Assembly (NCBI GenBank): GCA_052327205.1
Contig: CM126214.1
Location: 54,002,001 to 54,066,000 of the forward strand
Reading direction: 5' to 3'
DNA length: 64,000 nt
Source: Somniosus microcephalus
Taxonomy: Eukaryota
In this document: in pieces, positions 11,736 to 61,832 of the stretch
Layout: each line of letters begins with the position of its first letter
Position numbering within the stretch: the first letter of the stretch is position 1
Translations under genes and position numbers: made by a program
Notes under the pieces: generated by a model
Seen by the model: only the letters and a program-made list of their open reading frames with translations
Database searches by the model: none
What the model was told of the DNA's origin: nothing

Positions 11736-13467
11736 AACCCTTCACCCAAGGCCAACTGGGAATGTGCCTATTGGTGCGATCCATCATGCTTCTTTTGGTG
11801 CAGTCCCCCAGGCCCTTTTTAGTGCCATCTGCATCTTTTGATGCTTTTTTATGAGCACAGCCTGGGTGGTCACTCACCCTTGAGCTCTAACTCATTATCC
11901 TTATTAATCTGGCAATGTTGTTTTATTTATTAAAACACATTTTTGGCCTGCCTATCTTATTGCCATGGTAATGTGGATGTTAAGGCCCTTCAGGGGAAAG
12001 ACAACTTTTTTTTTAACGGTAACTGAAGCAAAGAAAATGGATAGTCTGCGATGGCTCACTAGATAAGGCTATAAGTAGAATTTATGAGCAGTTTAACCAA
12101 ATTAGTGAGGTGGAAAATAGTCGGGGATGGCACAAAGGCTTCTGTGTGTCACTCCCAGGGAACATAATACATAATCTCACTGAGAAAATAAATTGCAAAA
12201 GAGGGCCTTCCTGTCAGTGAAAGCCCGCTGACCTCTTTCACTGTGCAGCTGAAGAAGTTACAATGTTTTTATCTGTGCTTTCCACATACTTCAGTTCCTA
12301 TTTTCATCCCCATCCACACCCCCCCCCCACCCCCCCCCCAGTCATCGTTCACAGGCCGAGGGGTATGTTAGGTTGTCTCAAACTTCCAGTTCTTCCCTGT
12401 GGGGAAGCCCTTTGAGCCTTTTCTCCTTCAGGTGCACCTAGCTTACAGACCTGGCTCTGCTCACAGGCCACATGTCACCGGCAGCAGTATAAGCGTAGCT
12501 GTTTTTATAAATCCGAAAATTACAAAAATCGATAAGTTTATAAAGGCGCACTGACCTCCGCCACTGATTCTCCAATTGTACGGCAACAACTAAGCATGCC
12601 CCAAACAGAGCCATAGGGCACTTTAAGATCCAAAACAGATTTTAGAGTGAGGGGGCTTTCATGAATTTACTATTTGAAAACATTTTGCCCATTTTCTTGG
12701 GTTGTGGCACATTACAGATTCCATTGCACGGTAATACAGTGAAGGTCTGTCAGAGTTCAGTTACACAAGGTATTGAGGGCTGACAGGATTAGCACCTTTG
12801 TACAGAGATTCGGGATAGATGAGGGCAGTTGGTCAGGAGATCTGTTGAGAACTACGTGAGGGGGCATTCAGCAGCTGCATGGGAGGCAGGGGTCCTCTTG
12901 TTCAACCGATGGCGGTTAGCTTCAAGCAGGGTTGCCACATGTCGGGTTATGGACAGATTGTCTGATCCTTAACACAAAATGTCTCACTGGAACCTGAATG
13001 CCAATGGGTCATTTTCCAAATGGCGATTTTCTGTTCCTTGATGTCGATGGACTGCATTTTCATCAGCAGCAAAGCAAGTATCAGAAGTCAAACAAGGACC
13101 CCACCCATTCTCCCCGCCCCACCCCTGTCCTGCTTCCATTCGGTTTTGCACCTGGCAAAAGATGGAAATTCTAGATTCAAATTCAAACTGCAGGTCTGAA
13201 AGGCCGTATCTACGAAAATTGTATCACCCATCGTCAAATCAAGGTGTACCTAAACTTTATTCCAAGTCTCAGGAAATAAGACAATGAGGGGAAGACTTCC
13301 CTTGTTTACTGTTTTTAAAAAGAAAGACTTGCTGTTATAGAGCGCCTTTCACGACCTCAGGACGTCACAAAGCACTCTACAACAATGAAGTACTTTTGAA
13401 ATGTAGTCACTGTTTTAATGCGGCAGCCAATTTATGCACAGCAGGCTCCCACAAACAGCAACGTGAT

Positions 13468-13766
13468 TGTGATGAAATATTCCATTCACCACTGCCTGTG
13501 ACTGAGATCGGTTTCAGTGTCATTTCCCTTCCCCCAGACCTCATTGTATTGTGCACTGGAATGTGCTGTATTGTATACTGGAATGTGCTGGAATGTGCTG
13601 TGTGTAGGGCTCCGCCCATACCTGGCCCCGTTTGTAAGCTAGCTTCAGTCTGGCCTCAGTCTCCAGAAGGAAGACATCTCTCTCTCTTACGTGTTACTTT
13701 CTAAGTTAATAAAAGCCTTGTTTTTGTTCTGCTAACTTCGAGTCTCGGAATTATTGAGGCACATCA
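13468..13766 (+). repeat. 5' LTR
   Basis: Direct repeat of 17522-17820; AATAAA at 13708-13713. Confidence 0.97.
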
Positions 13767-13792
13767 ATTTTATTAACTTATTTTTCAACACT

Positions 13793-16700
13793 ATGGATCA
13801 ACTCCTGAAACCCAAACGTTTGGATTTGGATCAACATGCTCCGGACGCATCAGCACGCTTCGGACACTGGTTTGAGTGTATGGAATTCTTCCTGGACAAT
13901 TCCGCAACCGTCAAAGACGCTACGGACGCTGCGAGGATGAGACTCGGAATTCTGCGGAATTGGGTAAGCCACCGGGTTTACCCCCTCATCCAAGACGCCG
14001 AGACGTACCTGGCCGCCTGCGACATCTTAAAGGCGCATTACCAGCAGCCTACGAATGAGGTGTATGCTAGGCACCTGCTCGCTACCCGCGCACAGCGACC
14101 TGGGGAATCGGTGGAGGAGTTCCTAAGCACCCTGAAAATGCTTGGCAAAGACGGCAAGTGCCGAGATGTAAAAGCCGCGGTGTACACTGACGAGCTTGTT
14201 CGCGATGCCTTCATCACAGGCCTCAGCTCCACTTACATCCGGCAAAGACTGCTGGAAAAAACGGGGTTGGACCTGAAACAGGCTGCGGACACCGCACGAT
14301 CCCTGGATGTGGCCCAGAGAAACTCGGACGCCTACTCTTCAGCCCGCGCCATCCACGCCGCCACGCGTGCACCGAGGGCGCCGCCATCTTGGAAGGCATC
14401 TTCCCCGCCCGACAGCCCGACACCGGCTGGGCCCCGCTCTCCCCCCAGAAGCCCTACGACAGCCGCGACGCGTCAGGGACCCAACTGCTACTTCTGCGGG
14501 CAGCCAAAGCACACCAGAAACCTGTGCCCGGCGAAAGGCACCACCTGCTTTAAGTGCGGTAAGAAGGGGCACTTCGGGAAGGTGTGCAGAGGGAACCCCA
14601 CCGGAAAACCAACCACCGGAAAACCCGCCACCGCCGCGTGTGCGCCGTGGGAGCGGCCATCTTGGACGCCATCTTGCCCGACCTCGTGGGGTCCGCCATC
14701 TTGTGAGCAGACAGCGTGGACGCCATCTTGTATCGATCAGGGCCCTACAGTGGCATCGGTCACAGTGGACCAGACCAGGCCGCACCCGCTATCCAGATCA
14801 ATGGTGGACATCGAGGTAAACGGGTGCCGGGTTAAATGCTTAATTGACAGTGGAAGCACGGAGAGCTTTATCCACCCAGAACTGGCACAACAACTCTCCC
14901 TAAAGGTGGTCCCTACTCAGGGTACCATCTCTATGGCTGATAAAACCCAGACATCGACCATTCTGGGTTACTGCACGGTACAATTGTGCGTTAACGGAAC
15001 TGTATATGATAATTTTAAAGTATTAATCATGAAGAACCTATGTGCGAGCGTGATCTTGGGCCTGGATTTCCAGTGCAACCACCAAAGCATCACGCTCAAG
15101 TACGGTGGGTCCCAGCCGCCCCTCACAGTGTGCGGTCTGGCTACCCTGAAGGTAAAGCCGCCTTCGCTATTCGCGAACCTTACCCCTAACTGCCGGCCAA
15201 TAGCGACCAAAAGCAGGGGGTACAGCTGGGAGGACAGGCGGTTTATCGCGACCGAGGTAGACAGGCTCCTGAAAGAGCGCATTATTGAACGCAGCAACAG
15301 CCCGTGGCGCGCCCAAGTGGTAGTGGTAAGGGGTAGCGAGAAGAAACGGATGGTGATCGACTATAGTCAAACGATCAACAGGTACACCCTACTAGACGCC
15401 TACCCGCTACCCCGCATATCAGAAATGGTGAACCAAATCGCCCAATACCGGGTGTTCTCGACCATCGACCTCAAGTCAGCGTACCACCAGCTCCCTATCA
15501 GACCAGAGGACCGCCCGTACACCGCCTTCGAGGCGAACGGACGCCTCTACCAATTCCTCAGAGTCCCCTTTGGGGTGACGAATGGGGTCTCGGTCTTCCA
15601 GAGGGAGATGGACCGCATGGTCGATGACCACCACTTGCAGGCAACCTTCCCCTACCTCGACAACGTCACCATCTGCGGTCACAACCAGCAGGATCACGAC
15701 TCGAACCTCGAGAGGTTCCTGAAAACCGCACAAAAACTCAACCTCACCTACAACGAGGACAAGTGCGTTTACAACACCACGCGCCTCTGCATACTAGGCA
15801 GCGTGGTGGAGAATGGGGAAATCGGGCCAGACCCCGACCGATTGCGCCCCCTACGGGAGCTGCCCCTGCCCAACACTCCCAAAGCCCTGAAAAGGTGCCT
15901 GGGGTTATTTTCTTATTATTCCCAATGGGTCCCCAACTACTCCGACAAAGCCCGCCCCCTCTTGAAAACATCCTCTTTCCCGCTCTCTGCTGAGGCCCAC
16001 GCCGCCTTCAAAAGCATTAAGCAGGATATTGAGCGGGCCACGCTACAGGCAGTGGACGAGAACACTCCATTTCAAGTGGAAAGTGATGCGTCTGACTTCG
16101 CCTTGGCGGCCACCCTCAACCAGGCGGGGCGGCCCGTAGCTTTCTTCTCCAAGGGCCCGAGATCAGACACTCCTCCGTGGAAAAGGAGGCCCAAGCCATC
16201 GTGGAGGCAGTGCGCCACTGGCGCCACTACCTAGCCGGCAAACGCTTCACCCTACTTACCGACCAGCGGTCGGTAGCGTTTATTTTCAATAATAAACAGA
16301 GGGGGAAGATTAAAAATGATAAGATTCTTAGGTGGTGGATCGAGCTCTCCACCTTCGAGTACGACATCATTTACCGGCCAGGGGCCCTTAACGAATCCCC
16401 TGACGCCCTCTCACGAGGGATGTGTGCCAGCGCCACCGGGGATCGGCTACAGACCCTCCACAACGACCTCTGCCACCCAGGGGTCACGCGGCTGTTCCAC
16501 TTCATAAAGTCCCGTAACTTACCCTACTCGATTGAGGAAGTTCGGTCCCTGACCAGGAACTGCCGCACTTGCGCTGAGTGCAAGCCTCGGTTCTACCGCC
16601 CAGATAGAGCCCACTTAATCAAAGCTACACGGCCCTTTGAGCGGCTCAGCTTAGATTTCAAGGGCCCCCTCCCATCCGTCGACCGCAATGTTTACTTCCT

Positions 16701-17511
16701 GAACATTGTGGACGAATACTCCCGGTTCCCATTCGCCTTCCCCTGCCCAGACATGACCAGCGCCACGGTCATTAAATGCCTCAACAGCCTGTTCTGCCTG
16801 TTCGGTATGCCGAGCTACATCCATACGGATAGGGGGGCGTCCTTCATGAGTGAAGAGCTACGCCAGTACATGCTGTCCAAGGGGATCGCCACGAGCCGTA
16901 CCACCAGCTACAACCCCCGGGATAACGGCCAAGTGGAGCGAGAGAACGGAACAGTATGGAAAGCAGTCACTCTAGCTCTAAGGACCAAGGGCCTCCCTAT
17001 CCCCCGCTGGCAGGAAGTCCTCTTGGATGTGCTCCATTCGATACAGTCGCTATTGTGTACGGCCACTAATACCACGCCTCATGAACGAATGTTTGTCTTT
17101 CCCCGGAAATCCACCTCAGGCGTATCCATGCCGTCATGGCTCTCCACCCCAGGTCCGATACTCGTGCGAAGGCATGTGAGGGGCCACAAGACGGACCCTC
17201 TCGTGGAGCCAGTACACCTACTCCACGCCAACCCCCAATACGCATATGTCCGGCACGCCGACGGAAGGGAGGACACCGTGTCCATAAAAGACGTCGCCCC
17301 AGCCGGCATCGACAACAACCACGGCAATAGCGGCAACGACGATCACAGCAACTCTTACCCACCCACTACTCTTTCATCACCCCCGGAAGAACACCGACCA
17401 ACGGCACCCCCACCAACTACCCCTCCAACAACCCTGGCGGCACCCGCGGCACCGCAACAGCCACGTCGGTCGCAGAGGACTATCAAACCCCCGAACAGAC
17501 TAAATCTATAG
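13793..17511 (+). pseudogene. gag-pol polyprotein (Gag with 2 CCHC knuckles, PR, RT, RNase H, IN) with one frameshift near 16150
   Basis: CYFCGQPKH..C and CFKCGKKGHFGKVC, LIDSGS, YLDNV, VESDASDFA, HTDRG..GQVER. ORF 13754-16234 switches to frame 16177-17511 at FFS|, where about 10 nt (expected RTLQ-like codons) seem deleted. Confidence 0.92.
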
Positions 17512-17521
17512 AAGGGGTGAA

Positions 17522-17820
17522 TGTGATGAAATATTCCATTCACCACTGCCTGTGACTGAGATCGGTTTCAGTGTCATTTCCCTTCCCCCAGACCTCATTG
17601 TATTGTGTACTGGAATGTGCTGTATTGTATACTGGAATGTGCTGGAATGTGCTGTGTGTAGGGCTCCGCCCATACCTGGCCCCGTTTGTAAGCTAGCTTC
17701 AGTCTGGCCTCAGTCTCCAGAAGGAAGACATCTCTCTCTCTTACGTGTTACTTTCTAAGTTAATAAAAGCCTTGTTTTTGTTCTGCTAACTTCGAGTCTC
17801 GGAATTATTGAGGCACATCA
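17522..17820 (+). repeat. 3' LTR
   Basis: Direct repeat of 13468-13766. Confidence 0.97.
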
Positions 17821-37808: not shown

Positions 37809-38476
37809 GGTCCAGGGACTGCCTTGAGGAAATATGCCTGCTGCTGAGATGGAGTTATGTTTAAACTAGTCTGTCCCTTTAAGGTCACAGAGTGTACTCA
37901 GCGCTTTAAAATAGTCACTTCCTAAGGTCAGTTAGAGACTATTTATGGTTTGCCTCTAGATTGACAATGGATTGTAAACCCATGATTCTTTCACTAAGAG
38001 GAGGCCAGGTTATCAAAGTTTGCAGCCAACACAAAGCTGGGTCAGCGTGTATGCTGTGAGGAGGATGCTGAGAAACTCCAGTATGATTTGGACAGGTTGG
38101 GTGATTGGGCAGATGCATGGCAGATGCAGTATAATGTGGATACATGCGAGATTATCTACTTTGGTGGCAAAAACAGGAAGGCAGATTATTATCTGAATGG
38201 CAATAGATTGGGAGAAGGGGAAGTGCAAAGAATCCTGGGTGTCCTTGTGCACCAGTCACTGAAGGTAAGCATGCAGGTGCAGCAGGCGGTTAAGAAGGCA
38301 AATGGTATGTTGGCCTTCGTAGCGAGAGGATTCGATTACAGGAACAAGGATGTCTTGCTGCAGTTGTACAGGGCCTTGGTGAGACCACAACTTGAGTATT
38401 GTGTGCAGTTTTGGTCACCTTATCTGAGGAAGGATGTTCTTGCCATGGAGGGAGTGCAGCGAAGATTCACCAGACT

Positions 38477-38733
38477 TGTTAAATCTGTGAGTTGTTCAAG
38501 TAATTAATACTCAGACTTAATCAGTAACAATAAAACAGGTCTTTACTGGTTGGAGGTAGGGACTATACGTAGGTCTTTACTTCATGCCCACAGGCGGGAA
38601 CTGAGGGGATATCAGTACCCACAGTACTATTTATACCCCTATGGCCAGGAGTGGTACTGCGTATCACTACGCCCAACAAGTAGTGCAGTCCTGTCCATAG
38701 GTTCAAAGTAGCACACATATTACATACACAACA
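38477..38733 (-). repeat. 3' LTR
   Basis: Direct repeat of 41860-42116, adjacent to the PPT. Confidence 0.97.
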
Positions 38734-39049
38734 TTCCTCCCTTCCTAGCTTTACAGTCATCTCCCCATTTAACATAACGTAATAACATATATACATATAT
38801 AACTTCAGGTTTACATAACAGAATAACATAGATACATAGATAACTTCATGTCAAAACAGATCACAGATTCAGTCTCTGCGGAAAACAGTTCACAGATTCA
38901 ATCTCTGTGGTGGAGTCGGTTCACGTTGCTGGAGTGACTCATTCAATAGTCCTTCCATGGATTTAACAGTTTGAACTTCCGAACTGAATTGGCTCCGTTC
39001 GGAGGGACCACGTGTGTGATCTGGTAGAGGTGATAATGGTTCAGATGGG

Positions 39050-39300
39050 TCATCTTCTGTTTTTACTTTTCCTTTTCTGCTTCTTGGAGACTCTCTGGGC
39101 TCCATTGTCAGCTGCCACAGCTGCCAGCTGCATGCGCAGTTCCTCCTTCTCTTCCTCCTGTTTCCGTCGTAGAGCCAGCTTCTCCCGATGTTCCGTAGAC
39201 TTTTGGTGCTCCTCCATGATTTCTGCACTTTGGGAGTCGAAGTTACAAGCTGGGCAGGACAGGACATCGTAATATTCGGTGTCGTCCACCAGGTCATAGT
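39050..39300 (-). other. DNAJC21: Captured segment resembling the first C2H2 zinc finger and basic tract of DNAJC21
   Basis: YDVLSCPAC...[23 protein letters not shown]...[10 protein letters not shown] resembles recalled DNAJC21 YDDLYCPAC...[25 protein letters not shown]...QKLSKKQKKK. Confidence 0.68.
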
Positions 39301-41305
39301 AATATTCGGTGTCGTCCTGAGCTAGACCAGTGAGAGGGTCGTCTATTTCCTCCATACCCAGCTGGACGTTAGCCAGCTCTTGTTCCAAATCCAGACATCT
39401 TTCCTGAAGAGACTTCTTCATGTGTACCTCTGCATCCAGCTTTTTCTGGGCTTTCAGCAAGTCGTTTACTAGTGACCTCATTTGTGATTTTAATACTTCA
39501 ACTTCCTTTGGAGATTGATTGATCGGACTATGCAATCCCTCTACCGGAGCAGCTGTTTCAGCGGCCTGTTGTTCTACGTTGACGTGAGTCAGCGTACTTT
39601 TGGCATCCAAGGGCTGCTCTGTTGCAGTCATCTCAGTCTGTGTTGCCACCTCAGCTCTTCCAATAACCTTTGAGAGCTCCGAACCCCTTTCGTTTGAATA
39701 TTGAAGTTCGTGTTCAAGTTTTTCCCATTTCAGAGTCCTGTCCTTCAGCATATGCAGGAGTTGGCTGACCGTTAACTCCTCTGACATCAGACGTTTTGTG
39801 TGCTCCTGTTCCATTTTCTCCATCAGCTGCTTCTGTTGTCTTTCCAGATTCTCCAACTCTATATCAAAGAACTCTTTCGTTGCATTCAACTCTTGCTCAC
39901 AACGGCGAAGCATTTGTTCTAATTGCTGTTGTAGTTTGAAATGGAGTTGAGTTCGAGCCCGGTGTCCCTCAGAAATGGGCACATCAGTAGACTTGCCAGA
40001 CTCAGAATCCACAGTTAAACTATGTTGTTGTTGCTCAGTGGAATTCTGTGCTGAAACTTTGTCTTTTGCACCTGAGTTGGGCTTACCATCATCCGTTCCA
40101 GAGTCTGGGCCGACTATCTTCACCGAGTTCTCACTCGTTATTGTTTGTAGGAAATGCCAGTCCATATTCATTTTCCTAATCCACTCCCGTCCTAGTAGTG
40201 GAGGACCTCCTTCAGATATCACATATAAGTCCATTATTTGACTGTCTTCGCCCTTGTGGACCACTGCAACCTCTATTTTCCCGATGGGGTACACTCTTTG
40301 CCCCGTGTATGTTTCCAATATAATCCCCGTATCCTGTAGGGGAATATGTTGGAATAACTTTCCGTAATCTTTCTTATTTATGACCGTCAATGCCGATCCA
40401 GTGTCCAATTCCAGTTTTACTTGGACTCCTTCTATCTGAAGAGTGACCCAAATTGTCTGGAGGTCTGCACCCTTACCAGCGTTGAGTACTCTTAAGCTAG
40501 CCAGTTCATTACAGCTTAAGCTAGCCAGTTCATTACTGCTAGCGTCTGAATCGGACTCCTGTTCGGTCACCTTGTGTACCTTTGCGTATTTTCCTTGCGG
40601 TGACTTCTTGTTGCTGGTCTTCTTCCCTGACCTGCATACTCTAGCTATATGTCCAAGCCTACCACAAGTTCTACATTCTTGGTTTTTAAACCAACACTGG
40701 TTCTGATCATGCGTTGTCTTTCCACAACGATAACATTTGCCAGAACTCACACCCAATTTGTGTGCACTGAGCTCCGGTGACCGTAGCTGCATTACTGCCG
40801 TGCCTCTCGCTGCGGCTTCGTGTGCTGCTGCCATAGTGACCGCCTTCTCAAGCATCAGCTCATTCTCCTCGAGCAGTCGCTTTTGTGTATCCTATTTAAA
40901 TAAACCACACACAAATTTGTCTCGAAGTGCCTCTGTCAGTCCCGTTCCAAACTGGCAATATTTCGCTAATTTACGCAATTCCAGCAAATAATCAGCATTG
41001 CTTTCATGCTGTAGCTGCCTTCTGTCATAAAATTTAAATTGTTCCGCTAGCATCAGCGGCGTGGGGTTTAGATGATCTTTCAGGACAGTAACAATCTCAT
41101 CGAACGTCTTATCCGCCGGTTCATCTGGTGATAACAGGTGTTTCAATTGCCCGTATGTCTTCGCACCCATTAAATTTAATAATGTTAGAGCTTTATCTTG
41201 GTCACGAATTTTATTGGCCTTACAATAATTTTTTACTCTTTCAACATATATGGCCCAATCTTCGAGGTCACTATCAAAGGTGCTAATATTCCCGTGTTTA
41301 GGCAT
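39050..41305 (-). CDS. Chimeric Gag-protease-(STK10/OPTN/DNAJC21-like) polyprotein, about 751 codons, with one in-frame TAG at 40892-40894
   Basis: ORFs 40892-41392 and 39050-40855 are in the same frame. Gag (LRDKFVCGL), two knuckles ([22 protein letters not shown]), protease LELDTGS..LLGREW, then coiled-coil segments and a C2H2-type finger. Confidence 0.88.
39347..39784 (-). other. OPTN: Captured segment resembling the optineurin central coiled coil
   Basis: EELTVSQLL..., RAEVATQTE and [36 protein letters not shown] align in order with recalled [21 protein letters not shown] and [36 protein letters not shown]. Confidence 0.8.
39788..39970 (-). other. STK10: Captured segment resembling the STK10/LOK (SLK family) C-terminal coiled coil (PKK region)
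   Basis: [57 protein letters not shown] resembles recalled STK10 EEHRNQTQL...[42 protein letters not shown]. Confidence 0.8.
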
Positions 41306-41848
41306 TGTAGATTTGCAATTTCTCAGATTTTTTTTTTTTTTACTGCTATCCAAGATGGCGGCTTCCCGCTCTTGCCGTCGTCCTCCGCCCACAAAATGAC
41401 GGTTTTCCCGCGCTTGGCGGTCTTCACCCGTCCCCCAACGCCGTCTCCCTTCAGCCCCCGAGTGCGGCCCTTATCTTCGCCGCGATCGCCCGAGTGCGGC
41501 CCTTATCAGCGGATGCGATCGCTGGATCGCGAAGCAGCTCTCGGCTCTTATCAGGAGATGCGATCGCTCCGTTGAAACGCCTCCCGCTTGAAGCGGCTCT
41601 CGCGCCCTATTCCTCCAGCTCCCCCAGCCCCGTTCGTGCGGCCAACGCGGTCGACTGCCTGTCGCGTCGCTGCCCGGCTCAGACAACGGCTTACCCACCA
41701 CCAAGCTGGAGAAGAAGCTGACGGTCGCCGATGGAGGCTCCGAGGTCAGGATGTCTTCCAGTGGGGTGGAGAGGGTGGAAACCTCTCTGCAACGTCCTGG
41801 CTGTGGACGAAGCTGCCGTGGAGTGACTGCCGCAGGGTCCGAATCAGA

Positions 41849-41858
41849 CTCGTCGCCA
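41849..41858 (-). promoter_or_regulatory. Primer binding site complementary to the 3' end of tRNA-Ser(GCU)
   Basis: TGGCGACGAG lies 1 nt downstream of the 5' LTR; it is the complement of ...CUCGUCGCCA. Confidence 0.8.
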
Positions 41859-41859
41859 G

Positions 41860-42116
41860 TGTTAAATCTGTGAGTTGTTCAAGTAATTAATACTCAGACT
41901 TAATCAGTAACAATAAAACAGGTCTTTACTGGTTGGAGGTAGGGACTATACGTAGGTCTTTACTTCATGCCCACAGGCGGGAACTGAGGGGAGATCAGTA
42001 CCCACAGTACTATTTATACCCCTATGGCCAGGAGTGGTACTGCGTATCACTACGCCCAACAAGTAGTGCAGTCCTGTCCATAGGTTCAAAGTAGCACACA
42101 TATTACATACACAACA
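41860..42116 (-). repeat. 5' LTR
   Basis: Direct repeat of 38477-38733. Confidence 0.97.
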
Positions 42117-42985
42117 AGACTGATACCTGGGATGGCAGAAATGATGTATGAGGAGAGATTGGGTCGATTGGGCTTATACTCGCTGGAGTTTAGAAGAATG
42201 AGAGGGGATCTCATTGAAACTTATAAAATTCTAACAGGACTAGACAGGCTAGATGCAGGAAGGATGTTCCCGATGGCAGGGGAGTCCAGAACCAGGGGTC
42301 ACAGTCTAAAGATAAGGGGTAAGCCATTTAGGGCAGAGATGAGGAGGAATTTCTTCACCCAGAGAGTGGTGAACCTGTGGAATTCTCTACCACAGAATAT
42401 ATTCAAGAAGGAGTTAGATATATTTCTTAAGGCTAAAGGGATCAAGGGCTATGGGGAGAAAGCAGGGACAGGGTACTGAATTTGGATGATCAGCCATGAT
42501 CTCATTAAATGGCAGAGCAGGCTCAAGTGGCCAAATTGCCTACTCCTGGTCCTATCTTCTATGTTTCTATGTTAAACCAACAGGGAATGACTGGCTTTCT
42601 TTCTCTTTTTTTATACTTTTCTAACGATTGCTCAGTTACGACTTGTTGCTGTTTTATGAATGTAATACCTGAGCCAATCTGGTATAAGTGTGGCACTTTG
42701 CATGCTTGGCATTTTCAAGTGGAATTATTTCTAGTGTGACACTTAGAGATGTGGTGGATGAGCTAAATGTAAGACTTTAATATTTATACTCGCTGATCTC
42801 CTGTGATGTTGCTTATGGTAAATTGGATGATTACAAGGACAGATTATACCATGAAACACACGTTATATTATTCTGCTGCCAAGATGATTCAGTATTCAGT
42901 GTCACGTTAAGGCCACAAAGTGTATTTGATGTAAATAGGTACACCTTGCGATCAATTAGAGGTTAGTTGCTATCATAGAAACATA

Positions 42986-50610: not shown

Positions 50611-51004
50611 TACATGTGTCGTTCCCAATCCAGTGAGATTTTAAAACGCCCAATTTTTTAAGTGTAATAGGTGTCCCCTGAGTAATGGCAGGGGACTCAG
50701 GGATTTATCCAGATTGGGATCCACAGTACTACGCACGGGGAGATGATGCATGAAAGTCTTTGATGTGATTTAAGCAGAGAATCGACACAGTTCTCTCCGA
50801 ATGCTCGACTTTCCAGAGTATTTGGGTCCAAGGGGCAACACTGGCAGCATCAGCTGGCATTGCATGACTGGGATGCATTTTTAGTCTTCCTGCTCTTTCC
50901 CTTCTGGAAGCGTTAACCTGTATTTGATGACAGAGGGCAACAGTCAAGCTCAAGGCTGTCCTCACCCACACACCCACACACACACGGCAGGGTCACCGTA
51001 TAAA

Positions 51005-51951
51005 TGTAAGAAGTCACACAACACCAGGTTATAGTCCAACAGCTTTATTTGAAATCACAAGCTTTCGGAGCGCTGCTCCTTCTTCAGGTGAAGTGGAGAA
51101 ATGCATAAAGACACAGCTTATATAGTCAGAGAATCATGTCAGATGTTTACAGGTAACCTTTCCAACTGCCATTTATCACACCTCGGCAGAGAGATAATCA
51201 CAGCAGTCAAAGGTGTGAATGGTGTCCAAACAGGTCAGTCAGGGAAACATTACATCAAAGAACAATGAGGTGGGGTCACAAGGGGTCAAATATTGCAGAT
51301 GCTGGGGTCTGTATGAAAAACAAAAAAACAGACAAAAAACATTTTTTTGGGCTGGAGATCACAGCAGGTCCGGCCGCATCTGTGTAGAGAGAACAAGCCA
51401 ATGTCGACTCGAGTCTGGATGACCCTGCGTCAGGTGGGGTTACATGTAGCGTGACGCTACATGTCACGCTACATGTAACCCCACCTGATGCAGGGTCATC
51501 CAGACTCGAGTCGACATTGGCTTGTTCTCTCTACACAGATGCGGCCGGGCCTGCTGTGATCTCCAGCCAAAAAAAATGTTTTTTGTCTGTTTTTTTGTTT
51601 TTCATACAGACCCCAGCATCTGCAATATTTGACCCCTTGTGACCCCACCTCATTGTTCTTTGATGTAATGTTTCCCTGACTGACCTGTTTGGACACCATT
51701 CACACCTTTGACTGCTGTGATTATCTCTCTGCCGAGGTGTGATAAATGGCAGTTGGAAAGGTTACCTGTAAACATCTGACATGATTCTCTGACTATATAA
51801 GCTGTGTCTTTATGCATTTCTCCACTTCACCTGAAGAAGGAGCAGCGCTCCGAAAGCTTGTGATTTCAAATAAAGCTGTTGGACTATAACCTGGTGTTGT
51901 GTGACTTCTTACATTTGTCCACCCCAGTCCAACTCCGGCATCTCCACACCA
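51005..51951 (+). mobile_element. Penelope-like non-autonomous insertion made of inverted pLTRs (454-bp-arm palindrome), 12-bp TSD
   Basis: Arms 51002-51455 and 51463-51916 with a 7-nt spacer; 35-bp extra tail on the right; TCACCGTATAAA at 50993-51004 and 51952-51963. Confidence 0.9.
51827..51863 (+). ncRNA. Minimal hammerhead ribozyme (mirror copy on the - strand at about 51055-51091)
   Basis: TCAC-CTGAAGA-A-GGAGC-AGC-GCTCC-GAAAGCTT-GTGA. Confidence 0.7.
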
Positions 51952-59062: not shown

Positions 59063-59400
59063 TTTACAAAGCCGAGTACTGTCCTACCACAAATAAATTG
59101 ACACCTGTGCATCTGCGTACAGCGAGCAAGAACGCTTGCTGCTGACCAGGAAACCCTCCCCCGGGGCTGATTTCTGCCCCTGTCTGCGTTCCGCTGGGCC
59201 TTAGCGGAGCGCCCAGCTCCTGCTCCGCGGATCTCACCTGCCTGATTTACTGAGCCTGGCTGCTGGGAAGACTTTTTTTTTTAAACTGAACACTGCGAAT
59301 CCCGTGTTGTTTGCGTTGTGGGGGGAGGTGGGCCATCGGCTGCATTTGGAGTGGTGTGCCGGGAGCCAGCGGCGCCAGCCAGGCCAGTATAAAAGCAGCT

Positions 59401-59922
59401 GCCCGTGGGACCGGTGGGTGCCCGCTGCCCGTGGGACCGGTGGGTGCCCGCTGCCCGTGGGACCGGTGGGTGCCCGTGGTACCGGTGGCTGTCCGCTGAC
59501 CGGTGGGTGCCCGTGGGACCGGTGGGTGCCCGCTGCCCGTGGGACCGGTGGGTGCCCGTGGTACTGGTGGGTGCCTGCTGCCCATGGTACCGGTGGGTGC
59601 CTGCTGCCCGTGGGACCGGTGGGTGCCCATGGGACCGGTGGGTGCCCGCTGCCCGTGGGACCGGTGGCTGCCCGTGGGACCGGTGGGTGCCTGCTGCCCG
59701 TGGGACCAGTGGGTGCCCGTGGTACTGGTGGGTGCCTGCTGCCCATGGTACCGGTGGGTGCCCGCTGCCCGTGGGACCGGTGGCTGCCCGTGGGACCGGT
59801 GGGTGCCCGTGGTACTGGTGGGTGCCTGCTGCCCATGGTACCGGTGGGTGCCTGCTGCCCGTGGGACCGGTGGGTGCCCGTGGGACCGGTGGGTGCCTGC
59901 TGCCCGTGGGACCGGTGGGTGC
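59401..59922. repeat. GC-rich minisatellite (19-bp core GCCCGTGGGACCGGTGGGT with optional 7-bp GCCYGCT)
   Basis: More than 20 tandem variant units; explains the repetitive ORFs in all frames. Confidence 0.95.
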
Positions 59923-61279
59923 TCACAGCATCACATCCCAGCAAGGAATCAATGCCTTTAGAAGAGAAGGAGATAGGAAAAGAGATAAACGGAGAGAAAG
60001 AAGTGTTTGGGGGGGGGGGGGAGGGGTCGGGGGGATGCTCACACTTTGCTGCTTTCTAACTACTCTTTGTGAAAACGACAGTGATTATCGATGTTCCCTT
60101 GGATGAGTGTCACAAGCGCACTGTGGCGTATGTGTAATTCTCCTGGGGATGGTGGGGAGTGTGGGGGGGTGGTTCCCGTCACTCATGTAGTGTGCGAGTG
60201 GCACAGCAGGATACAGAGAGCTGGGCTGATTTGCCGTCAGCCACAAGGCACGGGGTTTGTATGGTAGGTTCACAGGACACGAAGGGCCGTTGGTTAAGTG
60301 TGCCTCTCAGCCTTAATCTGCAGCCAGCTGCTGGTGATTCTGCAGAGCGGCCCATTGACTGTCACTTGATTTTATTCTGTTGCGCCGGTGAATTGAGAAT
60401 GGGTCGAGGCAGTGGGCAGGAATTCGCTGGGCAGAGAATGAAAGTAAGCCTTTCAGATAAACTATGTTGTCCCAGGGCTTATTTAATTCGTACCAATCAG
60501 CTAAAGCAAAAACGGCAATGAAGCCAATGCTCTTCAAATGTGCCGATGCACTCCTTGCTTCACATTGCTAGCACAGCGAGTGACAGACCTGGAACTCTGC
60601 CGCACTTCATCCCAGGGCTGTACCAGCCCCAGCATCCTCTCGTCAGACACAAAGCCAGCTTTGAGAGGACAGAATCCCAGAGCCACACTGCTCGCTGTTT
60701 CTTTTCCACTGTTCCCTAGTTTTTCCCTTCCAATACTCTTTGCTGCTCTCATCAAAGCCATCCAACCCCGTGTCTTTAACCTGCTGTCACATCGCGAGGT
60801 GCTTGACAGAGTGGCCTGTAAGGTGGAAGAATTAGAAGGGAGCCAGGGCGGGGCGGTGGGGATGGAGCTGGTCTCTTAAAGCCAGAGAGCAATGTATCAA
60901 GGCAGAGAGGTTCAATCGGGGAGTTCCAGAGTGGTGCCGAGGAGCGATGATAAACTCGATGACAGAGCAGCCAGGGGCAATGGACACACAGGAGACCAGA
61001 ATTGGAACACAGAAAGGCGCAGGCTGGGAGGGATGGTTGGAGAATGTTGCCTCACTATTCCTTACTTGCTGAGTCAATGTGGGATCTTGCTGATCATAAA
61101 TTGTAAGTTCAACGTGCTGAATTTTTTTTAAATGGTGCAGTACCATTAACTGCCACCGGGTGTCTCTAGCAGCCTATGAAAGTGTTGGAGGGTACATTGT
61201 ATCGAGTGTGCAATGTAGTGCCACCTCGTGGCAAAGAGGTTATGAACTTTTCCTGTCTTTTTGCTCATATGTGTCTGCT

Positions 61280-61832
61280 TGGCTCATTTGTAGCACCCCC
61301 TGCTCCTGAGTCAGAAAGTTGTGGGTTCAAGCCCCATTCCAGGACTTGAGCACATAATCTGGCCTGATTTCAGCGCAGTAATCTGGCCTGATTTCAGCGC
61401 AGTAATCTGGCCTGATTTTTCAGCGCAGTAATCTGGCCTGATTTCAGCGCAGTAATCTGGCCTGATTTTTCAGCGCAGTAATCTGGCCTGATTTCAGCGC
61501 AGTAATGTGGCCTGATTTCAGCGCAGTAATGAAGAGAGTTGCATTGTCGGAGAGACATTAAACCAAGGCTCTGTATTCCTGTTGAGATGGATGTTAAAGA
61601 TCACGGGGCATTATTTGAAGAAGAGCAGGGAGTGTCTTAGCCAACGTTCCTCCCACAACCAACACCGCCATAAAGCAATTATTTGGTCACTGGTTGATTT
61701 GCTGTCGGTGGGATCTTGCTGTGCACAAACTGGCTGCCATGTTTGACCATGTAACAACTGTGACTGTATTTCAAAACGAATCCATTGGCTGTGCAGCCTT
61801 CTGCGATATCCTGAGAACAGGAAAGGTGCTTT
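61280..61832 (+). mobile_element. DeuSINE containing an internal tandem amplification
   Basis: Head ggctcatttgtagcac..gggttcaagcc; body resumes after 61530. Confidence 0.8.
61355..61530. repeat. Tandem repeat, 7 x 24/26 bp (TAATCTGGCCTGATTT(TT)CAGCGCAG)
   Basis: Unit lengths 24,24,26,24,26,24,24. Confidence 0.95.

Follow-up and report, generated by a model that had tools for sequence, protein, structure and literature searches.

Our analysis of a 64,000-nucleotide stretch of the Somniosus microcephalus genome (CM126214.1, positions 54,002,001 to 54,066,000, forward strand; here called the window) identifies a non-autonomous Ty3/Gypsy LTR element of 3,640 bp (3.64 kb; 38477-42116, minus strand), in which a chain of pieces from the host genes STK10, OPTN and DNAJC21 follows gag-protease, in this order and in frame. 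With confidence a little better than even, we favor a history in which a circular RNA, copied once around, provided an in-frame scaffold replacing pol and in which selection for translation in cis would have turned this scaffold into a gene-shuffling cassette that took up pieces of at least four more host mRNAs and multiplied in a vertebrate germ line to at least ten thousand copies. Precedents exist for every ingredient (LTR-mediated retroposition, maize Bs1, circRNA pseudogenes); it is the combination at this scale that appears to be new, and a search of article titles and abstract openings, whose reach ended before subscription papers, repeat databases and bioRxiv supplements, found no published description of the family or of its ingredients combined.

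The element is young, with two LTRs of 257 bp each that differ at one base (256/257 identical), and its insertion point lies inside a LINE reverse-transcriptase frame (presumably CR1-type), which it splits. Its parts, in window positions, are the following.

38472..38476, no strand: target-site duplication (TSD), left copy, 5 bp (AGACT)
38477..38733, minus strand: 3' LTR
38734..38746, minus strand: polypurine tract
38890..38937, minus strand: remnant of the integrase C-terminal tail
38938..39058, minus strand: end of STK10 exon 8 and start of exon 9, downstream of exon 12 (permuted order)
39062..39340, minus strand: C2H2 zinc-finger piece from DNAJC21, internally duplicated and basic at its end
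39345..39796, minus strand: spliced OPTN coding exons 5-8 (our own count), which contain EVATQTE and have lost 3 and 18 nt by in-frame deletion
39789..39970, minus strand: spliced pieces of STK10 exons 11 and 12; PKK coiled coil
39966..40136, minus strand: two STK10 exon-9 pieces joined by an in-frame deletion
40150..40458, minus strand: aspartic protease with DTG motif, in the same frame as gag
40609..41305, minus strand: gag, with a weak Retrotrans_gag match and two CCHC knuckles
41849..41858, minus strand: primer-binding site TGGCGACGAG, common to RT-bearing relatives, which we take to match a serine tRNA
41860..42116, minus strand: 5' LTR, 257 bp, TG...CA
42117..42121, no strand: target-site duplication, right copy, 5 bp

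A domain search of the element's frames gave no match to RT or integrase. In the window copy gag is interrupted by a premature stop (40892-40894), where most sister copies are open; the frame ends behind the DNAJC21 piece (stop at 39050-39052), and the STK10 exon 8/9 piece (38938..39058) is out of frame in the window copy's subfamily. The searched start was present at 28 of 30 loci examined, 23 of which have a frame of 743 aa running to the same end; all 150 tail matches scored were identical, and frames of at least 746 aa occur in 114 of 148 rows tallied. TSD, near-identical LTRs and the 4,295 copies of one and the same joint (see below) speak for transposition as a unit. A 24-nt tandem duplication between gag and protease (40485-40550) was also seen, and the frame of the window copy is 8 codons longer than that of its sisters.

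The sequence-only reading of this DNA had described a 146-codon intron-less OPTN-like segment with an EVATQTE motif, and 39347-39784 on the minus strand does translate without a stop into 146 amino acids with the motif inside. In a protein search the best matches of this cargo are shark optineurins (E 7e-50, 69% identity), all best matches being from cartilaginous fishes, and the OPTN-derived piece proper (39796-39345) extends four codons beyond the noted segment at its 5' end. Mapped onto the host OPTN gene (G000:C17:85.872-85.906 Mb), the piece resolves into four exons (G000:C17:85,884,683-85,890,195; 80-92% DNA identity), whose three joins (window 39687/39686, 39515/39514 and 39399/39398) sit exactly on donor and acceptor sites. 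These exact junctions show capture via spliced RNA, as the same reading had proposed, and a single-exon origin is not the case. Carriage on Gag-Pro, likewise proposed, agrees with the position of the OPTN piece in frame behind gag-protease; the upstream STK10 pieces, the downstream DNAJC21 piece in the same frame and the premature gag stop are additions to what had been noticed. The comparison with the host was made exon by exon, since extra bases of the host assembly otherwise shift the frame. There are two of these, both single bases in short runs relative to the captured copies, one at the end of exon 5 and one at the start of exon 6 (G000:C17:85884770-85885410, L058), and an apparent out-of-frame O6/O7 join was rejected as being due to them. 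At the site where TQTE is found in most copies and in many orthologues, host OPTN of the assembly moreover has TPTA, and a TPT change is common to three element copies (L065, L067, L075); extra bases and TPTA may reflect an assembly error or a damaged allele.

The LIR, TBK1-binding and UBAN parts are absent from the window copy, just as had been claimed. Sister elements hold a longer OPTN piece (coding exon 3 to exon 8) that includes the LIR, which reads DDSFVEI in 53 of 61 motifs, and the window form is related to it by an in-frame deletion at an 8-nt overlap. Judged by comparison of the two forms, the LIR was originally captured and its loss from the window copy is a later deletion. Genome pattern counts gave 4,295 copies of the window-form junction (at most 1 mismatch; control 0) and 4,112 of the LIR-bearing form (at most 2 mismatches; control 0), and the first-look candidates (16,570 for PKK, 23,837 for OPTN, 17,486 for the tail) are not copy numbers. 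A PDB sequence search with the cargo returned no match, and no chimeric gag-cargo protein from another shark was among the best 120 matches to cargo or tail queries, repeats being usually masked before annotation.

The STK10 part holds the clue to how the family may have begun. In relatives its exons (again by our own count) are ordered as exon 9 (3' part), 10, 11 and 12, then 8 and 9 (5' part), and the exon 12-to-8 join is exact, connecting a true donor (C8:167,191,933) with a true upstream acceptor (167,198,433). This back-splice junction occurs in 30 of 101 surveyed elements and has 1,134 genome matches (control 0). One element (L183) retains the whole undeleted STK10 turn (97-100% identity) between protease and integrase tail in one 979-aa frame, with exons 8-12 only and no STK10 exon outside; the full turn measures, by our sum and with one codon that had been counted twice taken out, 1,245 nt or 415 codons, a whole codon number. 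Entry to and exit from the scaffold lie on the same 14-nt STK10 word, and in RT-bearing relatives a matching word, with 10-13 nt in common, stands at the RT start, while the integrase tail contains an LDE-SPQQ word. As for the window copy, its back-splice junction was lost to the OPTN insertion, the permuted ends are kept and the exon 11/12 junction is exact. A non-colinear back-splice junction is the signature used for circRNA-derived pseudogenes (PMC4897178), and a template-switch route is described for LTR elements (PMC5131818). Apparently, then, the STK10 scaffold is one full turn of a back-spliced five-exon RNA and the family circRNA-founded.

The permuted order might instead have been captured from a linear RNA with repeated exons, produced by trans-splicing or by a tandem duplication that was lost again, so that no circle would be needed. 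An exon 12 to exon 8 junction can arise in this way too, and the circular STK10 RNA is a putative one, deduced from element sequences. Each STK10 exon is, however, present just once at the host locus over 120 kb, and the capture comprises exactly one turn with no exon outside 8-12, which makes the linear route quite unlikely to us; this estimate bears on the capture route only and is separate from those given for the other readings. Two further loci touch on STK10. A decayed full-length relative with the same primer site and 66% DNA identity (G000:C8:167208319-167213288) sits in an STK10 intron just upstream of the circularized exon 8, which may be chance given the abundance of the family, and L037 (G000:C3:354656987-354660409) contains an intron-less STK10 3' end, outside the exons of the circle, and looks like a separate retrocopy.

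Relatives with RT are abundant. A protease-to-RT pattern has 10,307 genome matches (control 0), and each of four such loci examined contains an RT motif, with one of them readable from gag to integrase in one frame. L186 has full RT, RNase H and integrase in the Pfam order PR-RT-RH-IN, as in Ty3/Gypsy, and it is at the cargo entry point that relatives hold RT and integrase. The lineage is probably Mag within Ty3/Gypsy, for which a 5-bp TSD, short LTRs, a full element of about 5 kb and a Ser or Leu primer are described (PMC3286476); at the level of this description, TSD, LTR length and element size of our element and its relatives agree. The gag-protease of the window copy is 90% identical to RT-bearing L185 and L186 and 74% identical to sister cargo copy L165, whereas its cargo differs from that of its sisters by about 10%. 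Being near RT-bearing copies in one part and near sisters in the other suggests that the cassette moved to a different gag-protease backbone by recombination.

The third donor became evident from a sister whose tail zinc finger is less diverged: its best match is DNAJC21 (E 1.5e-17), and the matches listed carry DNAJC21 names or the DNAJC21 domain set. A word-index search with the window's own tail had found nothing, and this tail aligns with DNAJC21 protein with identity at 26 of 48 residues. A locus found with PF21884 was rejected as the host DNAJC21 gene, its sequence not matching the tail. In other members, Ig domains or a myosin-tail coiled coil take its place, and cargo pieces are interchangeable within the family. 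Ig I-set cargo, which we assume to be titin-like, was seen in the STK10 scaffold of L038-L048 and L177-L182, and myosin-tail coiled-coil cargo, presumably cingulin-like 1, in L125-L137 and L160; protein-atlas searches with cargo gave generic zinc-finger and coiled-coil clusters and named no donor for either kind. Further cargo comprises a 487-nt piece of no named donor (L039, L042) and a 459-nt piece (L184).

What these exchanges have in common is the reading frame. Among non-splice joints present in at least 4 of the 101 elements, 25 of 27 are in frame. Two joints at an insert whose frame is unknown do not enter this count, and one joint is scored as in frame because 4 of its 6 copies are; the two exceptions compensate each other and so restore the frame in 36-39 copies. 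Joints found in 2-3 copies are in frame in 8 of 12 cases and out of frame in 4, and private joints in 20 of 43 (leaving out the window copy's five family joints). Overlaps measure 9, 11, 13 and 13-14 nt at the main joints and 0-2 nt at some. One might hold that neither frame nor cargo is selected, that codon-periodic microhomology and sampling give the appearance of a kept frame and that subfamilies rose by drift or strong LTRs. Chance is not a negligible factor here: the in-frame share of words common to cargo genes is 0.43-0.59 (up to 0.6 between genes) and within STK10 reaches 0.8 (up to 83%), and 25 of 27 yields P = 2e-4 against a null of 0.6 and P = 0.07 against the within-gene null of 0.8, for joints that are not independent and elements that were picked by protein searches, which favor open frames. 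Such an account fits poorly, however, with the compensated frameshift pair, with joints of 0-2 nt overlap that are in frame likewise and with the many joints outside the short domains used as queries, and to our minds it is very unlikely.

Conservation of the frame is not matched by conservation of residues. While gag-protease has an omega of 0.26-0.36 at about 10% DNA divergence (P < 0.001), a value that may partly be inherited from its history in RT-bearing donors, OPTN compared with the host gives 0.59 (P = 0.07) in the window copy, 0.85, 0.95, 1.37 and 0.96 in four diverged sisters of one related group and, on few changes, 0.48-1.73 in three barely diverged copies; for the DNAJC21 piece omega is 1.6 against a sister copy. 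Overall, conservation is strong for the frame and at most weak for the residues of the cargo. Some amino-acid constraint on the cargo may nonetheless exist, given an omega of 0.60 (P = 0.019) for STK10 and OPTN of the window copy together and of 0.40-0.65 for STK10 in diverged sister copies. The same values could be read as a sign of a generic protein role, in which a long soluble coiled coil with a basic tail on Gag-Pro aids assembly, co-assembly with helper Gag-Pol or nuclear entry and in which any coiled coil would serve. STK10, OPTN and myosin-tail-like modules are all of coiled-coil type, a structure model has long helices at 58-171 and 210-264, and surveyed frames usually end in a basic tail, with the window subfamily having gained a new basic end from DNAJC21. 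Yet Ig-domain cargo spreads too, E/K/Q-rich coding DNA shares in-frame words above chance, which alone enriches coiled coils, and hydrophobic positions are no better kept: invariant L/I/V/M number 22 of 41 as against 62 of 109 other positions. We therefore rate a generic role as unlikely, if worth keeping in mind.

More specific functions had been envisaged for the OPTN piece, namely as a decoy against autophagic clearance or as an LC8/dynein hook through TQT. The TQT anchor itself is present in the cargo (EVATQTE) and, in a single-sequence model, occupies residues 166-168, where a long helix ends next to a low-confidence and possibly disordered linker (pLDDT under 50); LC8 binding by EVATQTE is possible on the basis of this model. 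Many TQT peptides, on the other hand, do not bind LC8 (PMC6607443). Among 22 orthologue entries 12 have TQT and 5 RQT or RQA (5 not resolved); the motif is ancestral in shark OPTN and is inherited from the host. Its anticipated conservation among copies holds in that 90 of 97 OPTN-bearing copies keep it and fails in that shared variants are present, with 36 of 148 three-residue windows and 84 of 150 residues free of such variants; TQT is no better kept than its neighbors. For a selected decoy or hook one may cite, apart from the retention and placement of TQT and the omega of 0.59 in the window copy, that OPTN-bearing forms (4,295 + 4,112) outnumber keepers of the back-splice junction (1,134). 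These 1,134 copies, however, retain a junction that OPTN insertion removes and so indicate that the family spreads without OPTN, which many relatives lack; presence of the LIR, as in the sister form, or its absence has no visible effect on copy number (4,112 vs 4,295), and OPTN amino acids evolve close to neutrality in most of the lineages tested. Taken together, a decoy or hook function appears highly improbable.

Instead, we consider it fairly probable that the cargo is a passenger, kept by selection for unbroken read-through translation in cis. The element would be moved by RT and integrase from its abundant RT-bearing relatives. Its history can be read from the sequences. As a first step, pol was replaced by what is apparently one turn of back-spliced STK10 exon 8-12 RNA, the switch points being at words common with STK10, with entry at the RT start and exit in the integrase tail. 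Template switches at microhomologies of 4-14 nt then added spliced OPTN, DNAJC21 and other mRNA pieces and caused deletions as well, and in the window subfamily the cassette lies on a different gag-protease backbone. If the element RNA needs to be translated from gag almost to the 3' LTR, whether because the element's own Gag packages it in cis or because RNA with a long untranslated tail would decay, any in-frame cargo would pass this translation filter and the identity of the cargo, OPTN and TQT included, would matter little. The analogy is with mouse IAP 1-delta-1, in which an in-frame Gag fusion is reported to help retrotransposition in cis (PMC6466679, PMC7411935).

How does the family compare with known systems? 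Acutely transforming retroviruses with gag-onc fusions have a helper-dependent genome in which pol is replaced by spliced host sequence fused to gag; the shark element differs in having no env, in not being a retrovirus and in giving no sign of selection for one cargo function. Maize Bs1 is reportedly a gag fusion. According to PMC5131818 it is an LTR element with a frame built from three transduced cellular genes, but one of its donors lies out of frame, that account makes no mention of a circRNA and the host is a plant rather than a vertebrate. LTR-mediated retroposition as outlined by Tan et al. 2016 (PMC5131818) likewise involves partial spliced mRNAs that replace internal frames with microsimilarity at the joins, multi-gene chimeras, sense co-transcription and further rounds as non-autonomous elements, and our element has the features of such retrocopies (intron-less host sequence, replaced internal frames, microsimilarity, transposition as a unit). 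In contrast to the few to tens of loci per species given there, the shark family numbers about 9,500 copies or more, which divide into three mutually exclusive junction classes; its pieces were captured one after another into a single scaffold, and a single frame runs from gag across every module. CircRNA pseudogenes such as mouse circRFWD2 (Dong et al. 2016, PMC4897178) share the non-colinear back-splice junction, the restriction to circle-resident exons and LTR sequence in the flanks, yet number 33 high-confidence copies with a mechanism called 'mysterious' in that paper; in the shark, comparison with RT-bearing relatives reveals both switch points, circle and gag-protease share a frame, and the family apparently founded on the circle is large and transcribed. 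IAP 1-delta-1 is also non-autonomous, with pol removed and an in-frame Gag fusion, but is retrovirus-derived and arose by plain deletion with no host cargo (PMC6466679, PMC7411935). Plant TR-GAG elements, finally, are non-autonomous, under 4 kb, apparently active and have one gag frame (PMC4350172); we rejected classification as TR-GAG, since gag is not the sole coding content here, protease and host cargo being added in frame.

The window copy's subfamily is transcribed, mostly in sense in one of two RNA runs. In X20, 13,158 of 16.7 million reads match the element and first mates on the plus strand are about 10- to 35-fold commoner over the cargo, which, for a library stranded in the usual way, represents sense RNA; in X21, 12,347 of 14.4 million reads match, with weak strand bias. 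Reads were matched at 93% likeness and so stem from many copies rather than the window locus, read-through of host introns may add to them, and run X11, with just 19 matching contigs at low depth, was left out. Roughly 100 reads per run join OPTN at window 39778 to other upstream sequence, indicating that a further transcribed variant exists. Indexed runs with half or more of the cargo's words come under three organism labels and from four studies, none on record as RNA, and the best of them may be the source sample itself.

Since PMC4897178 leaves the mechanism of circRNA retrotransposition open, a family whose entry and exit points become visible by comparison with the parent element, and whose serial exon shuffling reaches a scale that permits statistics on selection for frame versus function, would, if our reading is true, amount to an experiment of nature, replicated on a massive scale, that tests both circRNA retrotransposition and the fusions that a Gag particle tolerates. 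By our arithmetic, about 9,500 copies of 3.6-4.5 kb make up roughly 0.6% of the assembly. For genome annotation, thousands of spliced OPTN, STK10 and DNAJC21 fragments inflate counts of gene duplicates, and in RNA-seq the copies add reads to these three genes and can be mistaken for an STK10 circRNA. Small RNAs directed against host genes could also arise from the copies.

Elsewhere in the window lies a second young Ty3/Gypsy element (13463-17820), whose LTRs have 99.3% identity over 304 bp and in which inspection by eye recognized motifs of gag, protease, RT and integrase in two frames; it is not among the repeats that the cargo element shares. An inverted repeat of 454 bp, near-perfect and with 7 nt between its arms (51002-51916), is possibly a fold-back element or an assembly artefact, and GC-rich tandem arrays occupy 59345-59970 (19/26-nt) and 61331-61554 (24/26-nt).
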